DNA from: Haplodiscus bocki
Taxonomy: Eukaryota
Assembly (NCBI GenBank): GCA_965655095.1
Contig: OZ296649.1
Location: 136,276,001 to 136,340,000 of the forward strand
Direction: 5' to 3'
DNA length: 64,000 nucleotides
Shown here: piece by piece, positions 30,894 to 64,000 of the stretch
Numbering within the stretch: position 1 is the first letter of the stretch
Layout: every line of letters starts with the position of its first letter
Notes under the pieces: model-generated
Database searches by the model: none
Told to the model about the DNA's origin: nothing
What the model saw: only the letters and a program-made list of their open reading frames with translations
Made by a program: the position numbers and the translations under genes

Positions 30894-31093
30894 NNNNNNN
30901 NNNNNNNNNNNNNNNNNNNNNNNNNNNNNNNNNNNNNNNNNNNNNNNNNNNNNNNNNNNNNNNNNNNNNNNNNNNNNNNNNNNNNNNNNNNNNNNNNNNN
31001 NNNNNNNNNNNNNNNNNNNNNNNNNNNNNNNNNNNNNNNNNNNNNNNNNNNNNNNNNNNNNNNNNNNNNNNNNNNNNNNNNNNNNNNNNNNNN
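30894..31093. other. Assembly/scaffold gap (200 N)
   Basis: Run of exactly 200 N. Confidence 1.
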
Positions 31094-32217: not shown

Positions 32218-32649
32218 CTTTTTCATTAACTTGCAATTAGGATCCTTTGAATATGTGAGAGCTAATGCAATCTTCTGTTCTTTTTGTAGTCAAGAGGATC
32301 AGTCCAAAAACCCTCGATAAAGAGTGAAAACTTATTAGATTTTCTTGTTTTTTACAAACAGTTCTAAACTTCCAAACCAGTTAAACTTATCAACCATTCG
32401 TCTTGTTCTAAGTTCAGTGGAGTTTCGAAAAAAGGTGTCAGTTTTGTTGCATTCAATTCAAATTCTTAGGTTTCTTGAGGAATTGTATTTGTTTATTCAA
32501 TAACAATATCTGTCTTTTTTTGGATGAAAATATTAATTCACCACAACTTATTTATCAATTGTGTTTTTGAGTAATAATATTGGACAGGTACTTATTTCGC
32601 GGTTGAAAACTCAACAAAACAGATTGCACGCCTGTTGATGAGTTTGTAA

Positions 32650-32930
32650 TCAGATTTTTCTCATTGATAAAATAGTTAGAGTTCTACCATGGAAATTGAC
32701 CTTGTTTTTCTTTTCGGCTTCAAAATAGAACATTATCGTTTTCAGTCTGCATTTATCCCTTTTCCTATGATAAATTTAAACTGGATTTTTTAGATATCCA
32801 AACTGCTGTATATACTCCGGAACTGAATGAGATAGCCTGTCTTTTACCAATTACATCAGTTCTTTTTGTACAATCTCATCTCAAAGGAGTTTATTCTGCT
32901 CCACTAATAAGAACAACTTTCCTACTCGTC
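32650..32930 (-). pseudogene. Putative minor capsid (penton-like) gene C-terminal remnant
   Basis: Minus translation SRKVVLISGAE*TPLR*DC...LKTIMFYFEAEKKNKVNFHGRTLTILSMRKI*. It resembles the Polinton penton C-terminal pattern (I.F.L.D....VDF.G) as recalled, and is homologous to YSGAEKVHLKNC at ~44846. Confidence 0.4.
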
Positions 32931-33869
32931 TAATTTTTATTGGATTTTCGATAACGTTGAATCCTATTTTCGAAATACGGAACGATTTTTCGTCTATCTT
33001 TTTTATTTCACTTTCAACACATTGCACATTTAAAACTACTTCTAATCTAATTTCATCAAAAATAATTGTTTTGGGTGATTGTAAAGTGTAATTATTCTCC
33101 GTTGTTTTTTAAATGCCATGTTAAATTTGTTAAACTTGAAAAGATGGAGTGATGTATTTTGGATCAACTAATTTAACAAATTCACCAAATGTTGCATCCA
33201 ATCTAAAAACTTTGTCTTCAACAATTTAAAAATTTTCTTCTCCTATTCCCATGACAACTTTTCTTCTGGTATCAAAACTAAGATCTGTTAAGTAATTTGA
33301 ATGGCCGTCTTCTATTTTTTTAATCAATTCTGTTTTCAATTTCTTTTGTAATGAGTGATTTTCTTGTTAATGATTTCAGTATTTTTGCAATAATTTTTCT
33401 CAAATTTAACATTTTTTTTCTGTCTGTTATATCAAAATTGGAGTTGGAAGCTTCAAGATTAATTAAACGTAGCAACCACTTACCGCCGGAATCGCGGGTA
33501 TGTTTCTTCGAGGCGACATCTTTTTCAAAATTCATTGGAGTCTTAAAATAGATTGTTTGTTTCGAAGTACACCTTTCAATTTCTGAAGTCTATTAAGCAT
33601 TTGTTTGTGTTTGTTCGTTGGGAGCATCAAGATTTTCAAATTTAGAGGCAAGAGTTCTTTATTCAATTCTATTCAATACTTCTATTTTTTTCCTCATGTC
33701 TTTTTTATCGGTTTTACATTTTCCTGGAATTTTTTTCATTTTTTTTTCACAACCTTTATTCACTCTTTAATTTCGTCTTCACTCCCAACATGTGCTCTTC
33801 CAAGGTCAGGTTCGCTGTCATGTCTCACTTTGTAAACAAATTTTATTTGTCCTCATTGCCTCTATTTTT

Positions 33870-34115
33870 TATTATAAAAAATGTAATACGGCTGTAAAAT
33901 GTGATTATAGTTGTTGTTAGGTAAATTTTATCTAACCAAAAGGCAGGACAGTAATTGAAGTGCCTTTACTCGAACTAATTAATCCGGAAGAACACATATT
34001 AATTTTTTTTATTGGTTTGATATGTCAGCAATTTTGGTGGTGGACATCCAAAAGAATCGAAGTAACTTTCATTTACGTATACAGCCCAATGAGTGCTTTT
34101 CAATGGACACATGTT
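33870..34115 (-). pseudogene. Adenain-type (Polinton/adenovirus-like) cysteine protease pseudogene
   Basis: Minus translation PLKSTHWAVYVNESYFDSFGCPPPKLL carries the catalytic His (HW) and Asp (YFDSFG). After a frameshift, FNYCPAFWLDKIYL supplies the candidate catalytic Cys. Not in the ORF track. Confidence 0.75.
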
Positions 34116-34187
34116 ATATATATATATATATATATATATGTTTATATATAGAAATATATATGTTTATATACGTATATATAAATATGA
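34115..34187. repeat. (TA)n microsatellite, degenerate at right
   Basis: Pure TA run 34115-34139, then interrupted TA repeats. Confidence 0.9.
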
Positions 34188-35290
34188 ATAAAGTTTTCAC
34201 AAATCAATCTTGATTTATCAAAAGTTACAGTCAGTTGCCCTTGAAGTTTTTCTCATTCTACTCTTCGTCTTCTGTTGAAAGTAATTTAGTCCTTGATAGC
34301 TTCATCTATAATAGATCAAATTTACAATTTGGTGTAATGTCATAGAATACTTGTTTTGTAATTTCACCCGAACTATCTATGCAGTTGGATGAAACAATGC
34401 TTCTATTGGTTTTTCTAGTTCTTTTATCAATCTTTTGTTCTTTTTCAATTTTTTTTAAAAAAGGCTCAAGTTTTATACTCTAAAAATTTTTTCACTGGTT
34501 GTTTCTTTTGGTTGTTCTGATATTCTTTTTGATTCAGTAAAACGATCATGTGATGAGTTTTTGACTTTTTTAGTTTTCCTATCTTGTTGTATGTGTTTTT
34601 CATTTTTCTGATACATTAATACGAAAATCACTTCTGTCGAACTTATAAAGTAATTTTTTACTCGTTTATATGTGGGGATATGCACGAAATTAGATCACCC
34701 ACTAGTCGCTTCTTACGAAATATTATTTAAAAACTTAAAACAAAGTTGTGGTTTTAATGTTAGTTCCTGTTTTTGTTACTTTTTGAAAATATTTTTTTGT
34801 TTTTTCTTAATAGTTTTTTTTTAAAATTCTATTCTTCACAAAACCGAGCTAAGTTTTTTTCCAACTTTTTTTTCATTTGAAAGTCCTTTTTTTTGTTAGC
34901 TGAAAAACTGGTTTCTTTATTTTCCAGCTCAAATTTTTTATCCAAATCTTCAAGGGCTTCTCACATTTTATCTATTGCCCCTTTCTTTTTTTTTTTAGTT
35001 TATTGCATTTTGTCCTATTTGGGATTGTGTTTCGATTGATTCATTTGAAAATATTTCAACAGTTTCCTTAATATCTTTCTGTTTTTTTGCTATAAGTTCA
35101 GTCCCTTAGTTAATATCAAATCCTGTATCAAATAGTTCTTTGCCAGAAAAAGTGTTTTTCCACATATACCAGGCTTTGCAGAATGAGTTTAAGTCACTGC
35201 TCCACCATTAAGATTGGACGACCTCTCAAAACCTTCCTGGGAACTCATCTTTTTCCTAGTATTCCTTCTGTTATAGGGACTATTTATCTT
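34168..35290 (+). repeat. Direct repeat copy B of 31094-32217 (offset ~3074 bp)
   Basis: Near-identical for the first several hundred bp, with more substitutions and indels distally. Confidence 0.92.
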
Positions 35291-35919
35291 GTGTATCATT
35301 TGATATCTATATCTTTTAATTGTGGAATAAGAATAACATAATTAGTGTGCTATTTGGTTTCAGGTTAATTTCAGATTTTTAGATTTTTTAACCGCAAGTC
35401 GAAACATCGCATCGACTTTATATTAGCGTTTTATTAAATCAGAATCAAGATTTCCTGTTTTACACATTTGTTCCGAAGAAAAAATAATTTTAATTTGATT
35501 TAGAAGGAACTGGAAATATTAATTTATTAACCTTTTCTCTAAAAATGATTTTCTTCTGAAAACTAAAAGATGGTTTAGTACAATATTAGTGGAAACGACA
35601 ACAAAGAATTGTGTATTAATCATAAATTAAAACGATTTAATCCAAAATGAACAAGTGTTGATACTGAAATTACTCTATAAAATTCGTTCGGAAGAAGATA
35701 TAGAGATTTTAGTTCTTAGGATTCGCGATAAAATTCCAATAAATGTGATAGAAGACGATTTGTCTGAATCCATTTTCTGAGTTTTGAAAAAATATAATGA
35801 GAAAACCACCGCATGTGTGGTTTCTGTAGAACCTATGTAACTAAAGAAAGCACTCATGACTTTTCAAGAAGTGATACTATAAATAAAAAACAAACTCAAA
35901 AAAGTTTTATCAATATCCC

Positions 35920-36065
35920 TATAAAGTATATTGTGATGAGTGCAGGGAAACTATGTAAAAGATGTTTAATACTCTCCTTTCAACAATTGAACATTTATTT
36001 GACTTGAAAAAACAGCTATAGAAATAAATTATTTATTGCAAACATCATCGATCTTTTTTTTAATA
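35920..36065 (-). pseudogene. Remnant of the gene family seen intact at 63023-63511
   Basis: Minus translation NKCSIVERRVLNI then (shifted) FPALI, vs NQPMSMLERRINMIIARNPQLI. Confidence 0.4.
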
Positions 36066-36709
36066 CAATTTCTTGCTACGCAAAAATTTTCATATAAATG
36101 TAGAATTGTGAGTACGTGGGAAAAGACGCAAAAATGAATTTAAAAACGAATAAAAATACTTTTTTACCACGTATAAATTTACATGTAATGTTGTTTTTAT
36201 AATTTTTTAATTTATGTCTTTCAAAATGTCTCGCTTGAAACAATGAAAACAAAAAAAATCGACTTTATGGGTTTTAACTGCTGGTTTATCTCTAATAGTT
36301 ATTAGACAAGCCAGCTTTTCATTAAAAGCGATGAAAAGAACACAGAAAGCTGGTATTATCCTAATTTTTGATTTTCATAATGGTGTTTTGCAAATTATTG
36401 CATTTTGACCTGTTAATGACATCTGAAAGGCCTAGTCAGTCTGTCCCCCGTTCCACTAGCAGAAGGACATGGTGCATTAGCTCAGAGTTAGTGGTATATT
36501 CTATCAGGAGGGGAAAAATGGTATACCGGCGAATATTTGGAAAAACGTACTAATTTACGTTCTTGACCAGGAATGCTCGATAGAGTTGGCCAGTGATTTT
36601 TTTTCATGCAATGAAAAATGTAACCGTGTATATGCTTTCAGTCTTAAATAGGATGTGGTTCTAATGCAGCGGAATTTACTTAGCACTATGCGTGTACATC
36701 TTTTTAGTC

Positions 36710-41861: not shown

Positions 41862-44800
41862 TAGTACTGACAAAACCAAAAATCAGTGCTCTGCAAGAAA
41901 AAAGGTGCTGAAAATGGCTCCCAAAGTCAATTAGGCCGTGTAATTCAAAAGTTCACACTATCATCTACGTCGTGAGTCGCGTCAATTGTTTCCACGAGAG
42001 ACTACAACTTTAACGTTTACAACCCCACATGACCCAAACAGCTCAATTGAATCTGTAGAAAAAATTGTTCGTGCCAAACTTTAAAAAAACGCTTATGGAG
42101 AATCTAGTTAACTTTGTTACCGGTGATGACACTCGACGTCCTTTTCACGTCAATTTTTATCAGAAACGTATGAACGCTTCGTTGAACATTGTAATTCGGT
42201 GCGCTTTGTAAATTGTTTTAGGAAGTTGGCCACTCTTTGCTGTGATGGATCAAACATCCAAACATAGGTTTTTTTTGAATTAGTGACTGGCTGTTGCCCA
42301 TCACGGTGGTTTGACTTCTTTTCTGCGGCATTCAGAACTATATCGGCTATTCATGTTCAAGCACTGTAACTGATAATTCAGAACATGTGTATCGAATCAC
42401 TTCTCACCACGGAGTGGAGATAACTGGTTTTTTCTTCTTCTGAGAGGTCTCTGAAAGTCTTGAGACTTACCTGAAACTAGTCTTGGATTAAGTCAAACGC
42501 TTTCGACTTAAGAACTGATATCGGCATTGTTGTGAATAAATTTTTGGGTTTCATTAGCGAAGTTCCTGTTTGAGTCGCTGCCGTATTTTGCAATGCCTGT
42601 AGAAAACGTTGTCTGTCTGCTGAAGACTACTGTTTGAACGCTATAACTCTGGTTAACTTGTCGGGCGGGTTTTTGTTTTTGTTGGAATTCCAGAAGTTGG
42701 TTTCTTTTGCGATGCCTCCGCATCATGATGAAAGTTTGCACGACAGCAGTGACGAGGATGAATGTTGACAAAATCTTGGTCTCTGGAAGAGATTTGTATG
42801 ATCTTGAAGGAATTGATCCCCACTCTTCTGGATGAAACTGACTTTTCCTTCGTTTCTAGATGACGACATGCAACGTCTGTAAAAACGGTGTTCTATATTT
42901 CTGTTGTCAAAGTTGCTGATGCATGTATAATCTTTTGCACTGGTGACGTAGCAATGTCGATTACTTTACGAGAGACTTCGAAAATAAATTTTCTGATTCC
43001 AGTCAACTATTCATACGAGTTATCACTTTTTGAGTTTTAAAGATAATTGGTGAAGATTTCTTTTAGCGTAAATTGATTTAAAAACCTCTAGATTTCCTTT
43101 TGGAGCCTGAAGCCGACTTTGTGGAAATTTTGATAGCAGGAAAATGGAGTAAGAAATTTTGGATTTTGAGAAGAATACACAAAACGCAGAGCACCCAAAA
43201 AAATCTTCGTAAAACTGACAGCAGTGGCAAAGCATGCAAAATGAAATCACTAGTACGCAAAAGCGATTACGGAGCCACTCAGTACTGTGAAGACTGGATG
43301 TAGTCAGTATGGTGGAGAACATATGTGCAGACAGTATTACCTGAAATGATTTTCCTAATTCTCAAAACAATTGGTTGTCAGTAAAAAAGAGACGAACCCT
43401 GAACTTATTCGAGAAGTAACAATGTATGTGAATGAACTGAATGAATTTTTTAAAGGTTTGAAGTTTAGACACAGTAAGAAATGGAACCATACGATAACCA
43501 ATACACATTTTACAGCAATTAATGAGTAATACTGCCGGTTTTGCAAGCATATCTATTGAAAAGCTTTGGATCAAGAGAACAGTAAATTTAATATGACATT
43601 GTGATGGTTTTGACAATATTTTAAATGCTGCTTCAACATTTTACCATCGTAGGTCTACTGATAAACCTTGTTAAAAGTAGACCAGCCCATCATAAGACTA
43701 TTTAACTAAAGTCAGTTATGTCGAGATTGACAAAATAAATGAGATGGCAAAAGCAAAATTAGACGATGTAGTAAAAAACCAACACGTATATGAATATAGA
43801 TGTCGGTGCTCAATACAGTTTATTGAACAAAACTAAGCGTGGTTCACATTTACTTGAGAAGATAAACAGCAATTTGGAGACATCAATGAAGAAAATGATA
43901 TATGGAATAAACTACATCAGCATGAAGAGGGTGATAAAGTAGTTTTAGAAAGTAAAGGAGGTGAAGAGAAATTTAAGCATATATTTGAGTCCAATTTCCA
44001 AAAGATTGTGCCAATTCTAAAACGTTTATTAACAAACAAACTACACAAGATAGAATTTGCCTCCCAAGGTGTATAATAGCACATTCAGTTTCCGCAAAAG
44101 ACCAAGAATAAACAGTAACTAAGTATAGGGTATGCTTCACTTGGCATAAAAAAAGGTTTTCTTAACTTATCATTTTTACCAAAAAAATGTATGCGAGAGG
44201 AAATGACAAAGTTAAAAAATCATTTAAAGTTAGTAATTTCAATCCCAACCAAGATTTATTATCCTCATAATACGAAATAACTATAGATTCATACGTCACG
44301 AAAATTATATCCAGTTCGGAAAAAAATTAACGGAGAGGGTACAAAATTTCATAGCAATTTTGTAGATGAGGAATTGGAAACATGTTAAGAAAACAATGAA
44401 AATCTTGATGTAACTATTAGTTCTTTTGGGAGAAAAAAAACCAAATTCGCACAACTGAACGACCAAAAGTTGCATTACTCTTTTTTGATGATAAAATATG
44501 TTAGAAAGGCAGACATGAAGGTGTTACATCGGGACTTTTAGCTGGAATATCTGGAACCAAAAACTTAGAAGGAATTATAGAACAAAAATGAAGTCTAAAA
44601 AGGTTGGGATGATTGTTACACAACCTCAATGGAGAATCATCAAGTCAAAAGTAAAAATTTCACAACTACAAAGGATTGTAAAAGAGAACTTATATCATTT
44701 CTGTGAAAGAAAGAAAAGGATAGATAAGTTTGAATATTATAAGCTCACCTTTTTTTCAGAAGCAGTTTGTGGATTTTTTTGACAAACACTAATAACTTCA

Positions 44801-45740
44801 GAGAAAACGAAATAAGTTTACGTCTCCAAAATGACAACTCTTGAATATTCTGGAGCAGAAAAAGTTCATCTCAAAAACTGCTTGAGAAGTTAAAAAAAAT
44901 AAGAAAATAGAAACACGGAGTAATGAGCATGTTTGCTGTCTTGGAAAGAGCCACAATTCAGAAATAAAAGGAAACTAAACTTCTGGTAGAATTCTGTTTT
45001 GATAAAAATAATCGGATCTGGACTTTCCAGCAATGTGGTTGTTTACGATCTTTACACATGGTTCGGAAGACGGTGACTTTTAGTAGCGATATTGGACTGT
45101 TTGAATTACTTCGTTTTTTGAAATAAACTAAAAATATGAAACCTGACCTTAACCAAAATTTTATTACTCCAACAGTTTCTTCATAAACTACGATTAATAA
45201 TTCAAAGCATTGAATTGAGAGCTGAAAAAGCAAAAATAGTCAGAAAAAACGGGAAAGGTTTAGCTATAGGAAATAAAAAACACAATGGAACAGATACGGG
45301 CTTTAGGTTTCAAGGAGGCTTTCCAAAACCTACAAAGACAAGTGTAAAAACTGCCCAAATTGGCCAAAATACGCCAGAGATAGCCAGAACTGTTTCAAAT
45401 TTTGTTGGAATTGATGATGGTAAGGGCGGATGAAACAAGGCAGAAATTCAAAGAACTCTAAACACCCAACTAATTTTCAAACAAAAGGATACAATGAGCA
45501 ATACCGTTGATGTATACCAAAATGAATTTAGAGAAAATCCAATGATTTCTTCAATAATACAAGGACGAATACAACTCCCGATCATTTCAATTTTGAAAAC
45601 TTCTTTAAAAATTGATGAATTTTAAACATAAAGTGGTCCCAAACCGGAGAAAAAAAACAAATGATGTTTTACAAAAACAACGCGAAGAAGTATAATTTGT
45701 TACTAATTGAAACGAAAAATTTTAAAAAATGGTCCTTTAG
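41862..45740 (+). repeat. Left arm of near-perfect ~3.9-kb inverted repeat
   Basis: The ORF track is mirrored (coordinates sum to 94262). Only a handful of differences seen (e.g. GCS/GYS, MST/MSA, several near the inner end). Confidence 0.97.
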
Positions 45741-46140
45741 GCTTTAATTTAGGAGGCAAAATATTCCATTCGAAATCTTTAGAACATAAGAATAGTAAAA
45801 AGTATCACAGTTCGGTAATGTGATATTTGTGATATTGATGTAATTTCTAAAACAATAGTATCTCATCTTAAAACTACTTAACAAATAACCAAATTTATTA
45901 AACCTAGTTCGTACAATCAGACGACTGATGATATCTATGACGTTGTAAGAATGACAAAATGTTAAAGAAAAATGAGATAATGTTTTGAAATGTTTCCACC
46001 ATTATAAAGAAAATGGTTATTATGTAGTCCGATAAATTGAACAACATAAAACACAATTCACAGCACTATTGAGAAGCAAGATCAATTTGAAGAAATCGAT
46101 GCAAAAACTGATCTGAGGATTAAAGGGCATGCCCAAGAAG
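43590..46140 (+). pseudogene. Decayed Polinton/adintovirus-like gene module (Zn-finger family remnant, penton-like remnant, small basic ORF)
   Basis: HCDGFD...EIDKINE...YEYRCRCSIQF resembles the 62241/63023 family. YSGAEKVHLKNC matches the 32.9-kb remnant. Mirrored at 48521-50670. Confidence 0.5.
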
Positions 46141-46163
46141 AGTGTGAAAGACAAACTTGGGAA

Positions 46164-46205
46164 AGAGAGAGAGAGTGAGAGAGAGAGAGAGAAAGAGTGT
46201 GTGTG
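46164..46205. repeat. (GA)n(GT)n microsatellite
   Basis: Directly visible. Confidence 0.9.
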
Positions 46206-46339
46206 CTTGGTTTTAAGAATCTATGACATGCAAGCATTTACTTAAGTTGAACTTTAATTTTGTCTGCGACATTCTGACTAAAACAATATTAGTTTTTTAA
46301 AAACCACCAAGTGTTGTAGATTTATTTTTTAAAGATGAA

Positions 46340-48270
46340 GATAAAATGTAGTAATAGTCAGTTGAAAAGTAAGTTTTTGTTTGGATACTTTTGTAGATGA
46401 AGAGTAATGTGATGGAAAAAGTTGTCGATAGTTGTAATAGTAGTTCTATTAAAAGAAAAGTTATTGTCAGGTTAAACTTGAAACAATTTCGTATGGAAAG
46501 TAAAAGATATTTAGGGATAGATAATTGCCAATCTTGGTGAAAAATTTTTCTTGAAAATTGTTTACAAATAGGTAAATGTTGGCGTTGTCTCGGGATAATT
46601 CATTAAATTAATTTGTCCAAACATGTTAAACAAAAACATTTAATGACGCTTCTGCAGAGACTTCTGCATGCATTTCTGTTGAAACGTGTGTAGGTTGTTC
46701 TCTAGATACTTCTACGTATACAACTGAATGTAATTCGGTGGTTATTCCTGAGGCTTCATCTACGGAATCCTTTGTTGAATCTTCTGCATTTTTTCGTTGG
46801 ATATTTCTGTGGGTACTTCTGTCTAAAGTGCCGTGGATATTTCTTCGGGTACCTTCGTGGATATTTCCATGGACGCTTCTGCTGATATTTCCGGTTACTG
46901 CCACTGAAACTTTTGAGTGTGCTTTTGCGGACATTTCTGCGAAATATTCGGTAGTTACTCCTATGGATACTTCTACATTGTCTTTTCCAGACGACCTTGA
47001 CGAAATATTGGATAGACTATGTCTTTTATTTCCTGAAAACATGAAATATAACAAATCTTTTCTTGCTCTTTTCAATACAGTATTAAAAGGTTTATGTGAA
47101 GCTCATGAAGAACGTGAAAGTGCTGAAGGAAATCTTTCATTGAAGGCTATCCATTTTTTCTTCTGCATGTAACTTCTTTGGGAACACTGTTAGAAAAATT
47201 AAAACAGAAACTTCACGCCCAGAATTGAAAAATTACTTAGATGAAGTTCAATGAAAGAAGTGCAACTTCAAAAGTTTCGTGTTAACTTTCTTCAATATGT
47301 TGTATTTTTTTTTCAAAACGTCTCCTATTTTCTTCCCCCTATTATCTACATTCTTTCTAGTAGCTTTTTCATGAGCTTCAAACGTTTTTCCGTTTGCGGA
47401 ATTTTCTTCCAATTGTTCGTTTACAGTAGAAAATTCCGTCTCTTTGCATTCTTTTCCTGAAACGTCTAATTAACATTTTATTACTTTTAATGTAATTACA
47501 GCATTTTATGTTAGTATTTCAGCTATTTCTCGAGAAGTTTTTGTTTAACCTGAAGAGATAATGAAATTTTTGTCCATCTTTTGCTTGTTTAGACTTAGAA
47601 GTTGACATTTATTTCACAATTAACTTGTTAGACAGTTGTGTACTTCTACTTCAGCAAGTATTTCTATGGATACTTTTACACATAAAGGTTCCAAGTGGTT
47701 GAAAAAAGTTGTCAATTGGAGTAATGAAACTTCAAGTAGAGAAGAATGTTTATGATAATTAGGAAACAAAGTTGTAGAAGATTGTAAAACTTGCTTAGAG
47801 AGTAACAATTTTTTTCCTACAAGGGAAATCTTCATAGAAATTTTTTTAAAACGGAAAAGTTGAATGACGGTATTGTTTTGCTAGCTTTTATTAAACTATA
47901 AAACCTAAACAGTGAAGAAAAAGACAACAGATGCTGTGGTACTGTGGCAGCTAATTCTGCAAAAAAAATTCTGAAGATCCCTCTTTTGATGATTGTGTGG
48001 GCAGTACTGCAATTTTTTCTGTAGTATTTTCAATGGATACTTCTCTGTTTACTTCTATGGATACTTCTGCTTTTAAAAATGTGGTTACTTCTGTGGGCAC
48101 TTCTGTAGTATTTCTTCCAGATGATGTTGACGATTTCGTTGACACAAGACTTTTTTTAAATTCCTGAAAACATAAAAACCAACAAGATGTTATAGCTATT
48201 CTTAAAACGTCAGTAGAACAAGAATGTGTGACTAATGAAAAATGTGAAAAAACTATAGAAAGTCCCATTC
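46340..48270 (-). repeat. Old tandem duplication containing 12-nt-period low-complexity ORF-like tracts
   Basis: ORFs 46626-47075 and 47951-48268 share SSxSSGxxxxEV and EVSxE repeats. Flanks ~46400-46500 and ~47690-47790 are also similar. Confidence 0.5.
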
Positions 48271-48520
48271 AGTACTTGAGCGGAAATATAATTTTGAAGC
48301 AATTAACTTCTTTGTAAAATATATGGATTAAATGAAAACATTAATCCTATATCAAGAATTTAAAAAATTTTTAACGATGAACGAAAAAAAGTACAACTTT
48401 TTACGGTACCTGTTAAACTTTTTAATATTGTGGTTTTATCTAAAGGAAAACCTTTCTTTCCTTTCTCAAAAAATCTAGACTCAGGGCAAAAGCTTTTCCA
48501 TTGCTCTCAAGCGTTCTCGT

Positions 48521-51500
48521 CTAAAGGACCATTTTTTTAAATTTTTCGTTTCAATTAGTAACAAATTATACTTCTTCGCGTTGTTTTTGTAAAACTTCAT
48601 TTGTTTTTTTTTCTCCGGTTTTGGACCACTTTATGTTTAAAATTCATCGATTTTTAAAGAAGTTTTCAAAATTGAAATGATCGGGAGTTGTATTCGTCCT
48701 TGTATTATTGAAGAAATCATTGGATTTTCTCTAAATTCATTTTGGTATACATCAACGGTATTGCTCATTGTATCCTTTTGTTTGAAAATTAGTTGGGTGT
48801 TTAGAGTTCTTTGAATTTCTGCCTTGTTTCATCCGCCCTTACCATCATCAATTCCAACAAAATTTGAAACAGTTCTGGCTATCTCTGGCGTATTTTGGCC
48901 AATTTGGGCAGTTTTTACACTTGTCTTTGTAGGTTTTGGAAAGCCTCCTTGAAACCTAAAGCCCGTATCTGTTCCATTGTGTTTTTTATTTCCTATAGCT
49001 AAACCTTTCCCGTTTTTTCTGACTATTTTTGCTTTTTCAGCTCTCAATTCAATGCTTTGAATTATTAATCGTAGTTTATGAAGAAACTGTTGGAGTAATA
49101 AAATTTTGGTTAAGGTCAGGTTTCATATTTTTAGTTTATTTCAAAAAACGAAGTAATTCAAACAGTCCAATATCGCTACTAAAAGTCACCGTCTTCCGAA
49201 CCATGTGTAAAGATCGTAAACAACCACATTGCTGGAAAGTCCAGATCCGATTATTTTTATCAAAACAGAATTCTACCAGAAGTTTAGTTTCCTTTTATTT
49301 CTGAATTGTGGCTCTTTCCAAGACAGCAAACATGCTCATTACTCCGTGTTTCTATTTTCTTATTTTTTTTAACTTCTCAAGCAGTTTTTGAGATGAACTT
49401 TTTCTGCTCCAGAATATTCAAGAGTTGTCATTTTGGAGACGTAAACTTATTTCGTTTTCTCTGAAGTTATTAGTGTTTGTCAAAAAAATCCACAAACTGC
49501 TTCTGAAAAAAAGGTGAGCTTATAATATTCAAACTTATCTATCCTTTTCTTTCTTTCACAGAAATGATATAAGTTCTCTTTTACAATCCTTTGTAGTTGT
49601 GAAATTTTTACTTTTGACTTGATGATTCTCCATTGAGGTTGTGTAACAATCATCCCAACCTTTTTAGACTTCATTTTTGTTCTATAATTCCTTCTAAGTT
49701 TTTGGTTCCAGATATTCCAGCTAAAAGTCCCGATGTAACACCTTCATGTCTGCCTTTCTAACATATTTTATCATCAAAAAAGAGTAATGCAACTTTTGGT
49801 CGTTCAGTTGTGCGAATTTGGTTTTTTTTCTCCCAAAAGAACTAATAGTTACATCAAGATTTTCATTGTTTTCTTAACATGTTTCCAATTCCTCATCTAC
49901 AAAATTGCTATGAAATTTTGTACCCTCTCCGTTAATTTTTTTCCGAACTGGATATAATTTTCGTGACGTATGAATCTATAGTTATTTCGTATTATGAGGA
50001 TAATAAATCTTGGTTGGGATTGAAATTACTAACTTTAAATGATTTTTTAACTTTGTCATTTCCTCTCGCATACATTTTTTTGGTAAAAATGATAAGTTAA
50101 GAAAACCTTTTTTTATGCCAAGTGAAGCATACCCTATACTTAGTTACTGTTTATTCTTGGTCTTTTGCGGAAACTGAATGTGCTATTATACACCTTGGGA
50201 GGCAAATTCTATCTTGTGTAGTTTGTTTGTTAATAAACGTTTTAGAATTGGCACAATCTTTTGGAAATTGGACTCAAATATATGCTTAAATTTCTCTTCA
50301 CCTCCTTTACTTTCTAAAACTACTTTATCACCCTCTTCATGCTGATGTAGTTTATTCCATATATCATTTTCTTCATTGATGTCTCCAAATTGCTGTTTAT
50401 CTTCTCAAGTAAATGTGAACCACGCTTAGTTTTGTTCAATAAACTGTATTGAGCACCGACATCTATATTCATATACGTGTTGGTTTTTTACTACATCGTC
50501 TAATTTTGCTTTTGCCATCTCATTTATTTTGTCAATCTCGACATAACTGACTTTAGTTAAATAGTCTTATGATGGGCTGGTCTACTTTTAACAAGGTTTA
50601 TCAGTAGACCTACGATGGTAAAATGTTGAAGCAGCATTTAAAATATTGTCAAAACCATCACAATGTCATATTAAATTTACTGTTCTCTTGATCCAAAGCT
50701 TTTCAATAGATATGCTTGCAAAACCGGCAGTATTACTCATTAATTGCTGTAAAATGTGTATTGGTTATCGTATGGTTCCATTTCTTACTGTGTCTAAACT
50801 TCAAACCTTTAAAAAATTCATTCAGTTCATTCACATACATTGTTACTTCTCGAATAAGTTCAGGGTTCGTCTCTTTTTTACTGACAACCAATTGTTTTGA
50901 GAATTAGGAAAATCATTTCAGGTAATACTGTCTGCACATATGTTCTCCACCATACTGACTACATCCAGTCTTCACAGTACTGAGTGGCTCCGTAATCGCT
51001 TTTGCGTACTAGTGATTTCATTTTGCATGCTTTGCCACTGCTGTCAGTTTTACGAAGATTTTTTTGGGTACTCTGCGTTTTGTGTATTCTTCTCAAAATC
51101 CAAAATTTCTTACTCCATTTTCCTGCTATCAAAATTTCCACAAAGTCGGCTTCAGGCTCCAAAAGGAAATCTAGAGGTTTTTAAATCAATTTACGCTAAA
51201 AGAAATCTTCACCAATTATCTTTAAAACTCAAAAAGTGATAACTCGTATGAATAGTTGACTGGAATCAGAAAATTTATTTTCGAAGTCTCTCGTAAAGTA
51301 ATCGACATTGCTACGTCACCAGTGCAAAAGATTATACATGCATCAGCAACTTTGACAACAGAAATATAGAACACCGTTTTTACAGACGTTGCATGTCGTC
51401 ATCTAGAAACGAAGGAAAAGTCAGTTTCATCCAGAAGAGTGGGGATCAATTCCTTCAAGATCATACAAATCTCTTCCAGAGACCAAGATTTTGTCAGCAT

Positions 51501-52402
51501 TCATCCTCGTCACTGCTGTCGTGCAAACTTTCATCATGATGCGGAGGCATCGCAAAAGAAACCAACTTCTGGAATTCCAACAAAAACAAAAACCCGCCCG
51601 ACAAGTTAACCAGAGTTATAGCGTTCAAACAGTAGTCTTCAGCAGACAGACAACGTTTTCTACAGGCATTGCAAAATACGGCAGCGACTCAAACAGGAAC
51701 TTCGCTAATGAAACCCAAAAATTTATTCACAACAATGCCGATATCAGTTCTTAAGTCGAAAGCGTTTGACTTAATCCAAGACTAGTTTCAGGTAAGTCTC
51801 AAGACTTTCAGAGACCTCTCAGAAGAAGAAAAAACCAGTTATCTCCACTCCGTGGTGAGAAGTGATTCGATACACATGTTCTGAATTATCAGTTACAGTG
51901 CTTGAACATGAATAGCCGATATAGTTCTGAATGCCGCAGAAAAGAAGTCAAACCACCGTGATGGGCAACAGCCAGTCACTAATTCAAAAAAAAACCTATG
52001 TTTGGATGTTTGATCCATCACAGCAAAGAGTGGCCAACTTCCTAAAACAATTTACAAAGCGCACCGAATTACAATGTTCAACGAAGCGTTCATACGTTTC
52101 TGATAAAAATTGACGTGAAAAGGACGTCGAGTGTCATCACCGGTAACAAAGTTAACTAGATTCTCCATAAGCGTTTTTTTTAAAGTTTGGCACGAACAAT
52201 TTTTTCTACAGATTCAATTGAGCTGTTTGGGTCATGTGGGGTTGTAAACGTTAAAGTTGTAGTCTCTCGTGGAAACAATTGACGCGACTCACGACGTAGA
52301 TGATAGTGTGAACTTTTGAATTACACGGCCTAATTGACTTTGGGAGCCATTTTCAGCACCTTTTTTCTTGCAGAGCACTGATTTTTGGTTTTGTCAGTAC
52401 TA
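48521..52402 (-). repeat. Right arm of near-perfect ~3.9-kb inverted repeat
   Basis: ctaaaggacc at 48521 is the reverse complement of ggtcctttag ending 45740. Identity drops at 52403. Confidence 0.97.
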
Positions 52403-58399: not shown

Positions 58400-58810
58400 C
58401 CGGGTTGACGTCTCAGAGACATTCAGCGCTGATCAGCTCTGATTCAGAATACTTTCAGGTCTGTTTCAGCGCTGTTCATTACCTGAAAATCTCTGAACAG
58501 CGCTGATTCAACTCTGAACAGCGCTGAAAACGCAAATTTTCAGAGGTAAAAATCAGCGCTGAAACAGCGCTGATTTTCTCTGAAACAGAGCTGATTCAGA
58601 GCTGAACAGCGCTGATTTTCTCTGAAACAGCTCTGAAACTGGAAATTTTCAGAGCAAAAAAATCAGCGCTGAATCAGAGCTGTTTCAGTGCTGATTTTCT
58701 CTGAAACAGAGCTGATTTTCTCTGAAACAGCGCTGAAACACCAAATTTTCAGAGCAAAAAATCAGCGCTGAATCAGAGCTGTTTCAGCGCTGATTTTCTC
58801 TGAAACAGAA
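58400..58810. repeat. Minisatellite array of CAGCGCTG/CAGAGCTG-TGAAA units in mixed orientation, probably the inside of a truncated TIR element
   Basis: Repeated aacagcgctgattttctctg, aaaatcagcgctgaatcagagctgtttcag; begins ccgggttgac. Confidence 0.8.
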
Positions 58811-60018
58811 AAACTTAACTTAGTTTTTCGAACGTTATCAGAAGCTTAAGCAATACATGCCAATATTACATGCTACCAATCGACATCTTCTACTCCATAT
58901 TGGTAAAAGAGCAAACCTTTAATCTTAGGGTGAGCCCGGGTCGACCCGCCGGGTGGGACTTGCTAATAACATACCCCTTCTACATGCAACTCGCTATTCC
59001 TGACACGACAGTCTCGGTATGCCATTTCTCAACACAATTCTTGTTCGTCGTTCAGCATCCTAAACCCTGCCTAGAATTTAGTGGCTTCGTGCCGAGAGTT
59101 GCCGGAACTTTTTCGAGTTGGTTACAATTATGCTCAAAATAAATCTCGCTAGTTGCATCATTACATGTTTTACATTAATGTCATGAACTCAGCTAATTGA
59201 AGGTTATTTCAAGCGCTTGTGGAGAAAATGTGAAATCATTCTCAGATGAATATAGAGACTCCTGTTATGACGCCACGATGGGAAGCAGAAAAAACGGCAC
59301 TTTGTAACCAGTATACGACGCTACAAGCAGAACTAAAGCCAATAAGTTAAAACTTAGAGAATTTTTTGGCAATATTTTTCAACAAACCTTCGAAGGAGTG
59401 AAAATACCTGAGGAAATGTTGGTTCGTTTCCGTAATTTCTCCCCCAGCCCTACAGATGAAATTCTTATTTTCTCTAAGATGATTCTGAGCTGCTCAGTAT
59501 GGTTTAAGTTTCTATTCAACGTCAATGGAATTATGTGTTTACTTCAATTAGCTTCAGTAAGCAATCAGCTTTTTGGAAAGTACTTGAGCTTCTTGATTTA
59601 TGTGGACTGTCTACTGACTCGCAAAAGATCTATTCAGTGAACAGACTCGTAGCAGTAACTAAATTTCGACTCGGGGGAGTATCCACGGTGTCGGAAACAA
59701 CGGAAAAGACCCCAAAAGTTTTCATTAATCACGTTGAAATTCAATTGGCAATTTGTAGTAAAAGGTTCCCCTAAGATAATATGCTTTCTGGATATTCAGA
59801 TCTTACTTTCGGCAAAAATTAGACCTCCTTCACTTGGAGCATTTTTTTGGGAAAGCTTTTGATCTAACGCTTTCTGGGATTTTCAAATAACCATGAAATA
59901 ACAGTGCGTACTGAAGCCAGTATTCGTGGGCAAAAACATTATGGAACCCGCGATCAAGCATGGGCAATCAGAAAAAAGGCACCATTACACTGCAACTTGC
60001 AGAGCCTCCTTACAGTGT

Positions 60019-60187
60019 CAGTAGTGTATAAAAAATATATAAATACCCTGTGTAGGGGTCAGGTACGGATTTATTATTATTTTTTTTGTGTCTGCGTTCA
60101 TTTAATCATAAAATTGACCGTAAATTTGGACGAAAAATAGTGAGACCCTTTGCGACTGATGTCATATGCTTTTTTTATATACTACTG
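60019..60187. mobile_element. 169-bp MITE
   Basis: TIRs cagtagtgtataaaaaa ... tttttttatatactactg; no clear TSD. Confidence 0.6.
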
Positions 60188-60586
60188 CTCGCGAAAGTAT
60201 ACGATTATGTTGAAATAGAAATAAAATTGAAATGATATATTCTTAATCTTTGTAATTTTTACAAAAACTCCACTGGCCAAGTTTGATATTATACTTTTTC
60301 AAGCATTTTACAGGGACCATTCCTGGCAGAGTTCCCCATCGATCTAGTCAGTTTTTTCAAGCATCAAGATATAGACAGTTCCTCCATATAGCTTTCGCGC
60401 ATGATGTTGACAAAGACTGGGGGACGTTGGCTAACACAGAACCCCAAACTGTGTGACTACCAATTAAGCATAGTCTTAACTTTAGTCAATGTCACAAATA
60501 CCACTAGGCTATAGGAGGCAATATACAAGGAGAAAAACTAGAATAAATATACAATTTCTTAGTCTCGTACACGTGTATGTTGTAAT

Positions 60587-61090
60587 ATGTCGACATACCT
60601 TAAACATGTGGAGAAAAAAATGATAAAATCAGTATATGTCGACATAGCTTAAACATGTAGAGATTATAAAATTTTGAGCTACAACAATCAGTGATATATC
60701 ATTGGATAGCCTATCAAAAGTTATGAATACCCTGAAAATTTCAACCTTGTATCTATTAGCATTTTCGAGAAAATTGAAAAAATAGGTTTTGTATGTCGAC
60801 ATACCTTAAACATGTACAGATTATAAAATTTTAAGCTAGAACAAAGTGTGATACATCATTGGATAGGTCGTCAAAAGTTATATTTACGCTGAAAATTTCA
60901 ACTCTGTATCTATTATAGTTTTCGAGAAAATTGACAAAAACCCAAAATGTCGACATATCTTAAACATGTAGAGATTACAAAATTTTAAACTACAACAAAG
61001 TGTGATATATCATTGGATAGCTTGCCGAAATATTAGTGTACGCTGAAATTTGCAGCTCTGTATCTATTATAATCTTTGAGAAATTGAGAT
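60587..61090 (+). repeat. Three ~155-bp tandem units plus one truncated unit, each starting with the palindrome ATGTCGACAT
   Basis: Units start at 60587 (partial), 60636, 60793 and 60947; shared ttaaacatgt, tcattggatag, ctgaaa, tgtatctatta. Confidence 0.92.
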
Positions 61091-61135
61091 TGTAAAATTA
61101 TGATAAATTATAAGATTTCTTTTTATATCATTGTT

Positions 61136-61426
61136 TCATTCATCTATATCTCCCTTATTGTTAACTTCAATCATAATATCAATTATCAATTTTCGTAATG
61201 CTCTATATTTTTCATCATCCAGGGATTCATACTCATCTATCATATAATTTATATATTTTAATACATTCATTATTACGATCATATTTTCTATAAATTTCAT
61301 TTCAGACATGTTTATTAAAAAGTTGTGTATTTCTTCTAGTTGTTCTATATTAACAAAGTACTTGGTATGAATTATACTACTATCAATTAAATTTAAACAA
61401 TCTGTCACACTATTAATCTTACTCAT
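61136..61426 (-). CDS. Hypothetical viral protein (96 aa), paralog of 61460-61834
   Basis: Intact ORF with TAAATG start; shares N.V.D.L..ID..I...IHNF..N with its neighbour. Confidence 0.75.
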   Translation of the reverse strand: MSKINSVTDCLNLIDSSIIHTKYFVNIEQLEEIHNFLINMSEMKFIENMIVIMNVLKYINYMIDEYESLDDEKYRALRKLIIDIMIEVNNKGDIDE

Positions 61427-61459
61427 TTATATAGTAAAAACTATTATTATTTGAAATAT

Positions 61460-61834
61460 TTACTCAGAATAATTCTGTCTAAAGATTGAGAGTTTACATT
61501 TGTATTTGTCTTCGTCTTTATTTTCCGATTTTGTTATAAAATAGCGATCATCATCATCTATCTCATTTTTTTCTATAAGACCTGGGACGATTAAGCTCCT
61601 CATCTTGATCCAGTCATCTCTTAACTCGCCATTTTCATAATCAATTAATTTTGTTAGCATTAGATTTGCTTGTTTAAGTACATCATATCTTATACCAAAG
61701 TCGACTCCATACCAATTCAAGAAGAAATTATGAATCATTGATATATATAATATGTAATGATCTTTATTATTATTATCAGTTATACCGATATCAATATAAT
61801 CTAAAACATCTTTCAAATCGTTTACTCCATTCAT
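61460..61834 (-). CDS. Hypothetical viral protein (124 aa)
   Basis: Intact ORF with TAAATG start; ATGA overlap with the upstream ORF stop. Confidence 0.78.
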   Translation of the reverse strand: MNGVNDLKDVLDYIDIGITDNNNKDHYILYISMIHNFFLNWYGVDFGIRYDVLKQANLMLTKLIDYENGELRDDWIKMRSLIVPGLIEKNEIDDDDRYFITKSENKDEDKYKCKLSIFRQNYSE

Positions 61835-62082
61835 TTATATAGAATAAAAATATTTTCTAAGTATTCTATTCTACTAATTTTCATTTTTAATTTCATATCT
61901 AAATCTTTTATCATTACAGACATTATATTTATTAGTTCTTTAAGAATAATATTCTGAATCAAATTATCATATGCTATCTGGATTTTATGATCATAAGTTA
62001 ATCTATTATATCTATCTAACATATTATTTATTTTCATACATACGAATGGATCTTTTTTAATTACATTTACAAAAGCTTCCAT
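61831..62082 (-). CDS. Hypothetical viral protein (83 aa, helical/coiled-coil-like)
   Basis: Intact ORF with TAAATG start; stop overlaps the next start. Confidence 0.72.
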   Translation of the reverse strand: MEAFVNVIKKDPFVCMKINNMLDRYNRLTYDHKIQIAYDNLIQNIILKELINIMSVMIKDLDMKLKMKISRIEYLENIFILYK

Positions 62083-62240
62083 TTAAAATATAGATATTTA
62101 CAATTATACTTATTTTTATACTTGGCATATTTATAAGTATACAAGTAATTATACAATCAAAGAAGTTATCTGACTGTATAATTATATGAGTATTTATACT
62201 TAGGTATACTTACACTTATATATATTTAATTTTCATTTAA
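62083..62240. promoter_or_regulatory. Divergent intergenic region rich in TATAC/GTATA motifs
   Basis: Lies between head-to-head ORFs. GTAATTATAC at 62145 recurs at 63754 and 63844. Confidence 0.5.
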
Positions 62241-62812
62241 ATGAGTAGTCATTTTTATTGTGAGATGTGCGACAAATCGATTAAAATCAGATCTAAAAAG
62301 AGACACATAAATTCTGCAAATCACAAATCATTAAATAGGACTATAATTTCCAAATACTCTGTTGAAAATCCAAGTTTTCTTCATATGGAAGATATATTAA
62401 AAAATATGTTGATGATTATAATAAAAAATTTGTATTATATATAATTATTTGCAAATGGAAAGTACATTTTTCAGATACTATAATTAACGTCAAATCTAAT
62501 AGATTGTATAATATTCATAGACCTGGTTGGAAATTAAGACCATATTTGATATCAAAAATTGAAGATTTTGAGAGTGATGGTCACAAATTCTCTCACATAT
62601 CCGAAATGGATATTATGTTTATATCAAATCTGAGAAATATGACATATGAACACTATCTCCAAATACCAAAATCAATGTTAGAATGGACTATGATTAAAAA
62701 ATTGGCTACTAACCCACAGCTCATAAAAGCATTTAATATAAATTCATATCATCCATTAATCAGAAAATACAGACATATCATCGATAATAGAGAAATTCGT
62801 GATCTTATATAA
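62241..62812 (+). CDS. C2H2 (U1-like) zinc-finger + 'HPLIRKY' domain protein, split by a 1-nt frameshift at the A-run 62399-62404
   Basis: YCEMCDKSIKIRSKKRHINSANH. A -1 shift gives ILKKYVDDYNKKFVLYIIICKW...RLYNIHRP, joining track ORFs 62241-62444 and 62504-62812 and aligning with 63023-63511. Confidence 0.75.
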
Positions 62813-62831
62813 ATCATTCTTATCTTAATAA

Positions 62832-63020
62832 ATGGATAGTGAAAATCAAGTTATTATTTATTGTGAAGATGATAATGAATATCGAGTATATTGCAATATT
62901 TGCGATAGTTTGTGTATCCAACGATTTTATAAAAATCATCTCAAATCACAAACTCATATAAATAATATTCGCAAAATTGAAGAAATAAATAACGCATTTG
63001 AAGCAATATCACTTAATTAA
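62832..63020 (+). CDS. Small C2H2 zinc-finger protein (62 aa)
   Basis: YCNICDSLCIQRFYKNHLKSQTH; TAAATG start. Confidence 0.8.
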   Translation: MDSENQVIIYCEDDNEYRVYCNICDSLCIQRFYKNHLKSQTHINNIRKIEEINNAFEAISLN

Positions 63021-63022
63021 AT

Positions 63023-63511
63023 ATGACTCAACTCTGCTACCATTGCAATAAAAATGATAAATGTTTTTATACAAAATATATCACTAATAACGTCAAAATC
63101 AATGAATTCGATAAAATATTTAACTATTATATCACTACTCATAATAAAAAATTTGATTTTTACTATATTGATTGTGAATTTGAAATACAATTTGATAATA
63201 ATTACAAGGCAAATATAGAAATTAATTATCATAATAATACAGATTATATCAATATAAAGAGTTATTTATTATTTTATATTGATAGTTGCGAAATTAATGG
63301 CTATAAGTTTAAAAATATCAATCATATGATTATCAAAACTATTACTTGTAAATGCAATATGAGTTATAAGCATTATATAAATCAACCAATGTCTATGCTT
63401 GAAAGACGTATAAATATGATTATTGCTAGAAATCCACAATTAATAAATTGTCTTAATCGAAATAAAAACCATCCTCTCATCAGAAAATATTCTCATATTC
63501 CATTATTATAA
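63023..63511 (+). CDS. Hypothetical viral protein (162 aa), paralog of the C-terminal part of 62241-62812
   Basis: Shared NKKF, NMxYxHY, PxSMLE, NPQLI and HPLIRKY motifs. Confidence 0.85.
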   Translation: MTQLCYHCNKNDKCFYTKYITNNVKINEFDKIFNYYITTHNKKFDFYYIDCEFEIQFDNNYKANIEINYHNNTDYINIKSYLLFYIDSCEINGYKFKNINHMIIKTITCKCNMSYKHYINQPMSMLERRINMIIARNPQLINCLNRNKNHPLIRKYSHIPLL

Positions 63512-63706
63512 ATGAATATAATAAATGTTACTGATCTTGATAATATCACAGAATATGATAATACTACAGACGCAAATAATTGTAATATTGATATAATTAT
63601 ACCAGCGTTATTATTTACAATACCATGTGGTCTATCATTTATATGTTTAATATCCCTTATGGTATATACTTTAGTCAAACCTTTGTTCAATAAAAAATCA
63701 AAATAA
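63512..63706 (+). CDS. Small single-pass membrane protein (64 aa)
   Basis: Acidic N-terminus with three NxT sequons, a hydrophobic stretch IIIPALLFTIPCGLSFICLISLMVYTLV and a basic tail. The start abuts the previous stop. Confidence 0.72.
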   Translation: MNIINVTDLDNITEYDNTTDANNCNIDIIIPALLFTIPCGLSFICLISLMVYTLVKPLFNKKSK

Positions 63707-63875
63707 TTACATTTATAATAATATTTATACTTATTATTCATATATGAATACATGTAATTATACCTAATAGTCATATATGAATAGGTGTAATTATTAATAC
63801 AAATATCTGGGTACTTATACAAGGTATAAATACACATATGTAAGTAATTATACAAATTCTATTTGTCAAAAATAA

Positions 63876-64000
63876 ATGGAGAAAATTTTATATCCAAAAC
63901 ATCCAGTTAGGTGTATTATAACAGGTCCCTCGGAATGCGGCAAATCAGTATTTCTAACAAATTTTATATTAAATATTATTAACGAATATGATAAAATATA
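63876..64000 (+). CDS. A32/FtsK-like DNA packaging ATPase, N-terminus (truncated by window end)
   Basis: MEKILYPKHPVRCIITGPSECGKSVFLTNFILNIINEYDKI: HPxR-hydrophobic strand-Walker A (GPSECGKS) right at the N-terminus, typical of Polinton/poxvirus A32-like ATPases. Confidence 0.82.
   Translation, partial: MEKILYPKHPVRCIITGPSECGKSVFLTNFILNIINEYDKI

Follow-up and report, generated by a model that had tools for sequence, protein, structure and literature searches.

The promoters of virophages mirror those of their helper viruses (PMC8547959; 10.1101/2022.07.28.501842). Polinton-like viruses (PLVs) accompany entomopoxviruses and share genes with them, according to excerpts of Barth et al. 2024 (PMC11296320), the main text of which contains no promoter analysis; the word "promoter" is absent from the main text of the adintovirus, coral-polintovirus and PLV-framework papers that were checked. 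Vaccinia late promoters carry TAAAT(G) at the start codon and, ten bases before it, a conserved T with further Ts around it (PMC11980589, in excerpt). No published report of a Polinton with poxvirus late-type promoters was found in the literature.

The window, i.e. the whole stretch of 64,000 nucleotides analysed, contains the left arm of an integrated, high-copy Polinton of 18.8 kb, with the following features:

60014..60019, forward strand: target-site duplication AGTGTC, 6 bp, its twin lying after the right end, 18.8 kb on and outside the window
60020..60237, forward strand: left terminal inverted repeat, which starts AGTAGT and is 93% identical to the right end over 211 nt
60635..61093, forward strand: three tandem units of ~155 bp each, within the element and also found in other copies
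61136..61429, reverse strand: 96-aa gene, TAAATG start, TTT at -11..-9, 33 nt from the upstream gene
61460..61837, reverse strand: 124-aa gene, its TAAATG start lying in the tail of the upstream gene (ATGA overlap), TTT at -11..-9
61831..62085, reverse strand: 83-aa gene, TAAATG start, heading the leftward block, with no upstream gene to pack against
62238..62812, forward strand: C2H2-type zinc-finger gene, TAAATG start, heading the rightward block
62829..63020, forward strand: 62-aa zinc-finger gene, TAAATG start, upstream stop 19 nt before
63018..63511, forward strand: 162-aa gene, TAAATATG start, in which TAAAT is kept and the ATG is shifted by two bases
63509..63706, forward strand: 64-aa gene with a hydrophobic stretch, TAAATG start, the TAA being the upstream stop here and spaced in most other copies
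63873..64000, forward strand: start of the A32-type packaging ATPase (241 aa, continuing beyond the window), TTT at -11..-9 here

The eight genes are real, each having relatives in other copies with the same start residue. The frame of the C2H2-type gene is broken near 62.4 kb, while an unbroken copy encodes 190 aa, and the rear portion of this broken gene is what appears as a ninth ORF (62606). Contigs from four DNA-type runs of one study span 30 of 30 bins of 61100-64000, and the eight starts show no letter difference.

The full element encodes capsids, an A32 ATPase, a putative protease, an integrase and a protein-primed PolB, and its terminal inverted repeats and 6-bp target duplication are those of a Maverick-Polinton. 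The left repeat lacks most of the fold-back outer arm that the right end and the sister copies have. Further hallmarks of the group are found as well: the integrase matches PF00665 (rve, E 5e-12), the A32 ATPase matches PF04665 (E 9e-12) and the double-jelly-roll capsid matches PF21738, the latter being split into two ORFs in the window copy and whole in others. PolB is a 1263-aa ORF, whose own Pfam scan returns an endonuclease VII stretch only, but which aligns over its full length with PF03175-positive relatives; its start is broken in the window copy. The putative adenain-type protease and minor capsid have no Pfam match and are named after their sequence motifs, their position and their resemblance to genes in outside elements. 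The element has 25% GC versus 40% for the host, and thousands of first-look element candidates are present in the genome. Protein searches with the element proteins returned near-identical relatives, and no match to the element was found in phage records.

A sequence-only reading of this DNA had placed TAAATG at 61426(-), 61834(-), 62082(-), 62241, 62832, 63512 and 63876, i.e. at seven of the eight genes, and TAAATATG at the eighth start, 63023; all eight contexts are as it gave them, and the TAA at 63023 is the stop of the 62832 gene. Of the two starts that it took to coincide with an upstream stop, 63512 does so through its TAA, but at 61834 the stop is the TGA of the ATGA overlap. Within 61100-64000, TAA precedes ATG at 7/8 starts versus 8/125 other ATGs (Fisher p 4e-7), and in trinucleotide shuffles of the element it precedes 168 of 2968 first ATGs of ORFs. 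The pattern persists in the rest of the element: of the 22 pattern-defined starts of the window copy, 17 have TAAATG and the other five have TAAAT or TAAAA 1-3 nt earlier. Across family A (11 copies, 27 gene families), TAAATG occupies 169 of 208 starts versus 267 of 6950 other ATGs (3.8%), counts over copies that are related to each other and hence not independent; a further 29 starts have TAAA(T) within 4 nt. The A32-type ATPase has it in 11/11 copies despite a differing spacer before the start. A pattern-free recount, from which copy c03 was dropped as its element ends after 6 kb, and d07 and d10 from the B and C counts, gives TAAATG at 149/198 starts in family A, 56/59 in family B, a second and distant AT-rich Polinton family, and 1/48 in family C, a Polinton family of host GC. 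Inside the coding strands of families A and B the motif is rarer than expected (O/E 0.7). Host genes have TAAATG at 1 of 21 starts, two tubulin pattern matches that are not N-termini (L070 and L091) having been left out, and a purine at -3 at 20 of 21. One host Rab-like gene starts with TAAATG.

The second element of the promoter is a T core. In family A the T fraction at -11/-10/-9 is 0.76/0.78/0.72, compared with 0.33 at the 267 non-start TAAATG, and 25 of 27 gene families exceed their own flanks (window-corrected permutation p 5e-5), the core falling within upstream coding DNA in a few families. At these positions the identity between copies climbs to 0.76-0.81, from about 0.5. Family B repeats both elements, with T fractions of 0.64/0.79/0.66 (p 2e-4), while family C has neither (T core absent, p 0.33). 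In the AT-rich families A and B the promoter pattern has two parts, a T core at -10 and a TAAAT initiator joined directly to the ATG. A poxvirus late promoter is marked by the same two signals, TAAAT(G) at the start codon and a T ten bases before it with further Ts around, and the spacing is that of the vaccinia late class in the excerpted description. Counts of TTTTTNT and of splice words were not informative.

A conserved gene related to that of the poxvirus RNA polymerase subunit Rpo18, as judged from profile matches, is present in many family-A copies: in 3 of the 11 and in at least 150 genomic places, although the window copy and the four family-B copies read lack it. Pfam PF03293 scores over its cut-off in 13/13 aligned copies (best E 2e-23) with no other family near, SHS2_Rpb7-N reaching E 0.02 in one of the 13, and in the PDB vaccinia Rpo18 is the sole match up to E 10 (E 1e-19). 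By these matches the protein is nearer to the poxvirus subunit than to cellular Rpb7. It has 144-151 aa versus 161 in vaccinia, with a match over ~100 residues and the last third unaligned. In a genome scan, 150 of 150 scored matches, out of 456 candidates, are over the cut-off. The 20 best matches all lie amid family-A genes and all have a TAAAT start; among them dN/dS is 0.21, with dN<dS in 187/187 pairs, 3 of the 190 being left out for saturated or zero dS. Among the 20 of 460 publications listed, no earlier Polinton or virophage with an RNA polymerase subunit of its helper was found.

The element proteins scanned include no RNA polymerase large subunit and no VLTF3, so that the small Rpo18-like subunit of some copies is all that they hold of a multisubunit RNA polymerase. 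In the assembly, searches for VLTF3 and NCLDV capsid, both insensitive, were blank. The Rpb2 search returned only host RPB2 and RPC2 and missed host RPA2, and a catalytic-motif pattern picked up the three large subunits of the host along with three unrelated matches, with no helper polymerase. No relative of the ATPase, of the 173-aa gene product or of the Rpo18-like protein turned up when viral contigs were scanned with these proteins.

The chance origin of TAAATG in DNA of 75% A+T, where TAA is common, has a negligible probability and is refuted by controls, namely background ATGs, shuffles and AT-rich outside elements: the background is 3.8-5.7% versus 75-95% at starts, and equally AT-rich outside elements with related PolB (L138, L147, L182, L189) have the motif at only 0-2 of 10-17 starts. 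Among the 108 outside loci with related PolB, 83 of which had at least three ORFs and were scored, only L157 (7/7) passed p<1e-4, and it has no clear T core. It is very improbable that TAAATG is a translation device (stop-start packing, polycistronic reinitiation or an in-frame stop guard) and not a promoter. Such a device would account for the 32 of 169 TAAATG in family A that form stop-start joints, where TAA is the stop of the upstream gene, and for the nine in overlaps, but 128 are spaced from any upstream family gene, the first genes of divergent blocks included, some of those scored as spaced coming after a broken upstream gene. Moreover, the exceptional starts retain TAAAT yet place the ATG in a different frame from the TAA, a device of this kind would leave the -10 T core without a function, and the genes of family C are packed with overlaps without the motif. 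The interpretation given by the sequence-only reading is refuted neither by the host genes nor by the rest of the element, nor by stop-start packing, which it had named as an alternative.

A large cytoplasmic DNA virus other than a poxvirus proper, with late signals of a similar kind, could also be the helper, the promoter being real and viral and the Rpo18-like gene reflecting a separate or older contact, which we consider unlikely. The promoter alone is not poxvirus-specific, since TAAATG occurs at a third of the starts in two AT-rich giant-virus-type contigs (6/16 and 5/15) and a 173-aa accessory gene of families A and B also occurs in giant-virus contigs (relatives in 46/46 motif-found viral loci; 15 named giant-virus MAGs); family B also has the promoter without Rpo18 in the copies read. 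However, the T core of these contigs is weak (0.53-0.56), the spacing of the -10 T is that of vaccinia, and the captured subunit matches poxvirus Rpo18 only. A giant virus had been suggested as possible helper; a helper is likely, and the evidence favours a poxvirus over giant viruses in general. Autonomy, in which host RNA polymerase II reads the pox-like promoter in the nucleus together with element factors (the 172- and 280-aa zinc-ribbon proteins, or the Rpo18-like protein in place of Rpb7), is quite improbable. It would be in line with the VLTF3 of some polintoviruses (PMC11131425, in excerpt), with a weak TFIIB zinc-ribbon score, below cut-off, of the 280-aa protein, and with the thousands of candidates, which are easier to explain helper-free. 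Against it, the element proteins scanned have no VLTF3 match, no relative of the 172- or 280-aa protein was detected in family B, which has the same promoter, and AATAAA is not avoided in the coding strands of A and B (3.4-3.5 per kb; 0.7 in C, 0.2 in the host). The predicted folds of the two proteins (pLDDT 47 and 44) are too poor to judge, and a PDB profile search gave ribosomal L37 only, at E>0.1.

The best explanation is that of an integrated Polinton with two-part promoters of the poxvirus late type. A co-infecting poxvirus probably supplies the RNA polymerase and the late factors that transcribe it, which makes the Polinton a likely virophage of a poxvirus of this animal. A late promoter at nearly every gene and a relative of Rpo18 in many copies together point to dependence on a poxvirus. 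The -10 T core and the Rpo18-like gene also support the earlier proposal of a viral RNA polymerase and a virophage-like integrated element. The mechanism that follows, including where transcripts start, their poly(A) heads and the need for a helper, is inferred from sequence. Transcription would begin inside the AAA of TAAAT, so that the T at -3, avoided by the host, would not be in the mRNA, and through polymerase slippage the mRNA would gain a short poly(A) head at its 5' end, with A at -3. In the nucleus there would be little or no expression of the element, whose copying and packaging would take place in a poxvirus factory. The Rpo18-like protein, as a captured subunit, would redirect or jam the polymerase of the helper. 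We lean slightly towards a wider view, in which both families are endogenous virophages of an undiscovered poxvirus, almost all their promoters rebuilt to the late pattern and one family having captured Rpo18 as a hijacking or jamming tool.

If so, this massively amplified germline element would be a candidate for a heritable defence of an animal against poxviruses, and would preserve a fossil trace of a poxvirus lineage in a host for which no poxvirus is available. Its very large germline copy number needs repeated helper infection or some helper-free activity. A host-like Polinton family and two families resembling poxvirus late genes coexist in one genome. The promoter pattern and the captured polymerase subunit predict the helper, and offer a simple screen of animal genomes for hidden poxvirus hosts.

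In its pPolB, rve integrase, A32 ATPase, double-jelly-roll capsid, and protease-like and minor-capsid-like genes, the element is similar to animal Maverick-Polintons and adintoviruses (Polintoviricetes), and it shares with Maverick-Polintons the inverted ends AGT...ACT, the 6-bp duplication and a size class of 16-19 kb (definition excerpted from 10.64898/2026.06.19.733378). Unlike these, it is far poorer in GC than its host, has a pox-late promoter on nearly every gene, carries Rpo18-like cargo and has fold-back ends of 280-410 nt.

The entomopoxvirus-associated PLVs are likewise of Polinton type and tied to poxviruses, two of their capsids being near the Maverick-Polinton group 2 clade, but they are found in insect occlusion bodies and have tyrosine recombinases or no detectable integrase (PMC11296320, in excerpt). 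Here there is an rve integrase, a very high germline copy number, a promoter match and a polymerase-subunit gene, and the helper is putative. Mavirus and EMALEs with CroV, and Gezel-14T with PgV, are likewise small viruses that integrate, with promoters modelled on those of their giant-virus helpers; they differ in their protist hosts, mimivirus-type helpers and TCTA or AAAATTGA motifs, and their helper dependence is experimentally shown, whereas that of this Polinton is deduced.

The yeast plasmids pGKL1/2 are linear, AT-rich, pPolB-bearing DNAs with a TAAAN initiator, and pGKL has a slippage-made 5' poly(A) (PMC6211774, in excerpt); they differ in having their own polymerase and capping enzyme and an early-type upstream motif, with no capsid and no integration. 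In expression signals the element resembles vaccinia, with TAAAT(G) on the start codon and a T ten bases upstream in the excerpted account, start sites and poly(A) heads here being putative, and with the Rpo18 (D7R) that the Polinton protein matches.

The element that begins at 60020 in the window was read on into the neighbouring stretches:

60020 onward: window element, 18.8 kb, AT-rich, ends AGTAGT...ACTACT

It codes for an A32 ATPase, a double-jelly-roll capsid, an rve integrase and a PolB of 1263 residues, together with protease-like, minor-capsid-like and about 15 small genes, and AGTGTC on both flanks forms a 6-bp target duplication. By this gene set and these ends, the element is a Polinton. 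The copy is damaged in its zinc-finger gene, a 290-aa gene, the capsid, protease and HNH-like genes and the PolB start. Its family, here called A, is large: all 150 scored ATPase matches in the genome are at least 81% identical (from 16,186 first-look candidates, which are not a copy number). The host genome is of 1.5 Gb, with intron-bearing tubulin genes and tandem arrays of histone genes; it is that of an animal, and its histone sequences suggest an invertebrate. Ten additional family-A copies were read (11 in all), 77–89% identical to the window copy; where both ends of a copy were in view, they were 91–99% alike. A decayed second family-A-like Polinton lies 3 kb to the right of the window element (L010 7600 to L012 6000, loci outside the window). 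A 204-aa, two-helix membrane-type family-A protein (L018:8611-9219) has a weak, below-cut-off score to SLATT_1; SLATT genes are reported in viruses of such kind. Elsewhere in the window, 29500-36500 and 43500-51000 are further AT-rich stretches; their skews are mirrored, and there is an N gap near 30900. The segment 42508-43361 is repeated at 50940-51754, and 58410-58824 is a short-unit repeat rich in CAGCGCTG/CTGAAACAG, in direct and inverted copies, with relatives past the element's right end.

A fold-back of 280–410 nt, its first base pairing with an inner copy, opens each inverted repeat, as seen where the window element ends on the right (L009-L010) and at left ends in L017, L019, L021, L025, L027 and L031. 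All six such ends that were folded gave z of about -22, and the arms differ wholly between copies, complementarity being nevertheless kept; the terminal palindromes described for protist PLVs are shorter. In some family-A copies (L029-L030, L033-L034, L259) the protein-primed PolB is a different one, and the two of these read whole also differ in their ends (AATAATAT..., small hairpin); the types of polymerase and of end seem to vary in step. A 19-kb element at L109-L110 (C4 88.366-88.385 Mb) is a single giant inverted repeat with 9-kb arms (98.8%), a PolB at each end, TAAATG starts and a matching 6-bp duplication; no capsid genes were seen in it, a central N gap leaving its middle uncertain.

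The sequence-only reading had claimed that seven of eight viral starts in 61424..63878 are TAAATG, the poxvirus-type late initiator. The eight contexts are as it described, and the observation is real: in 61100-64000 the motif heads 7/8 starts and 8/125 other ATGs (p 4e-7), and shuffled element DNA gives 168/2968. The family as a whole agrees, with TAAATG at 169/208 starts in the 11 copies (start positions taken from the N-terminal residues of orthologues), compared with 267/6950 other ATGs. Since the residue patterns were written after the clusters had been viewed, the starts were recounted without them, giving 149/198. Of the non-TAAATG starts in the first count, 29 have TAAA(T) 1–4 bases earlier, six have TAAAT within 20 bases (five being PolB) and four have neither. 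Stop-start packing accounts for little of the pattern, as the TAA is the upstream stop in only 32/169 cases; nine more lie in overlaps and 128 are spaced, some through a broken upstream gene. In the ATPase, TAAATG is kept in 11/11 copies while the preceding spacer varies. PolB (e.g. L010 near 400) has TAAATAG 13–14 nt 5' of ATG, and the PolB, 62-aa and HNH-like genes share the word CATTTCAA some 20 nt upstream; their upstream regions possibly form a second promoter class.

The promoters share a further feature. With the T of TAAA as anchor and gene families weighted, T frequency at -11/-10/-9 in family A is 0.76, 0.78 and 0.72; this core is seen in 25 of 27 gene families (p 5e-5, window choice allowed for), is the position of highest copy-to-copy identity and has T at 18 of its 24 bases in the window's eight promoters, while the 267 TAAATG outside starts have T at only 0.33. 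In a review of vaccinia gene classes, late promoters are described as TAAAT, typically followed by the G of the start codon, with a conserved T ten bases upstream among less conserved Ts (PMC11980589), a description that the family-A core fits exactly; it fits roughly the T core placed 5–7 bases from TAAAT in PMC5294985.

Two further Polinton families in the same genome, reached through a PolB family search, served as controls. Family B (GC 0.26, gene order unlike A, capsid about 25% identical) has TAAATG at 56/59 starts and a T core of 0.64/0.79/0.66 (p 2e-4). Family C, of host-like GC (0.40), has TAAATG at 1/48 starts and, in the same analysis, no T core. In a small sample of 21 host starts set by comparison with homologues (3 histones, 10 tubulins, 5 Ras-family, 3 polymerase subunits), TAAATG occurs once and a purine stands at -3 in 20. 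AATAAA is not avoided in A and B coding strands, reaching 3.4–3.5 per kb (C, 0.7; 13 host frames, 0.2), a density that follows largely from base composition and thus weighs little.

Beyond these families, 108 outside loci carry a related PolB. Among the 83 scorable, AT-rich loci mostly had 0–2 TAAATG starts, and L157 had 7/7; this 9-kb viral contig (GC 0.38), whose PolB is unrelated to those of A and B, is likely an independent case and also carries a protease-integrase-chromo-like fusion. Nine Polinton loci (L137, L141, L151, L201, L212, L223, L228, L229, L238) have TAAAA 5' of ATG, preceded by Ts at -14..-9 and by a run of A at -21..-16, with TAAA at most 11 nt away in 77/98 ORFs (A run, p 3e-4), a layout resembling that described for vaccinia intermediate promoters (PMC11980589). 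A quick FastTree phylogeny of 47 PolB sequences, rooted at the midpoint, places A and B together, with C and L157 apart, and an ATPase tree (39 sequences) groups A, B, a TAAAA-start clade and a motif-less clade with moderate support. From scores and trees, promoter type differs by lineage, and TAAATG is not a general Polinton trait.

An accessory ORF in one family-A copy (c04) matches the poxvirus RNA polymerase 18-kD subunit (Pfam PF03293, E 1e-17). The gene lies in the left arm of 3/11 family-A copies and is absent from the window copy and from the B and C copies read. Against all PDB sequences, a single copy finds vaccinia Rpo18 alone (E 5e-15), and a profile of 13 finds it at E 1e-19, with no other match up to E 10; all 13 match PF03293. 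The gene occurs at no fewer than 150 genomic places (456 candidates), and the best 20 loci all lie amid family-A genes, have a TAAAT start and give dN/dS of 0.21. In vaccinia, D7R/Rpo18 is a polymerase subunit, the Rpb7-like stalk. Among 40 more accessory proteins scanned, no other pox families were found. Searches of the assembly, limited in sensitivity, turned up no helper genes.

A poxvirus of the same host probably supplies polymerase and late factors to the element, whose RNA would start within AAA; slippage would give this RNA its A head, a process described for vaccinia and for yeast virus-like elements (PMC6211774), and the T at -3, which is not host-like, would then be missing from the RNA. 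The element would then copy its DNA with its own PolB, package itself and re-integrate, and the Rpo18-like protein may act on the helper's polymerase. Less probably, the signal is of giant-virus type rather than specific to poxviruses: TAAATG heads a third of the genes in two AT-rich giant-virus-type contigs, and giant-virus contigs contain relatives of a second accessory gene (173 aa), which is present in A and B. Also less probable is a diverged transcription factor encoded by the element itself, the late factor VLTF3 being known in some polintoviruses (PMC11131425).

Among the matches listed, from a literature collection with few subscription papers, none describes promoters of TAAAT(G) type or an Rpo18 gene in a Polinton; gene tables that the supplements of PMC11296320 and PMC11131425 may hold could bear on the Rpo18 claim. 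Polinton-like viruses are described as travelling with entomopoxviruses (PMC11296320), and inferring a helper from promoters in common is established logic for mavirus/EMALEs (PMC8547959) and Gezel-14T (10.1101/2022.07.28.501842). The promoter mimicry suggested here is like that of these virophages, a known lifestyle; what appears new is the setting, a Polinton of the animal germline whose promoters point to a poxvirus.
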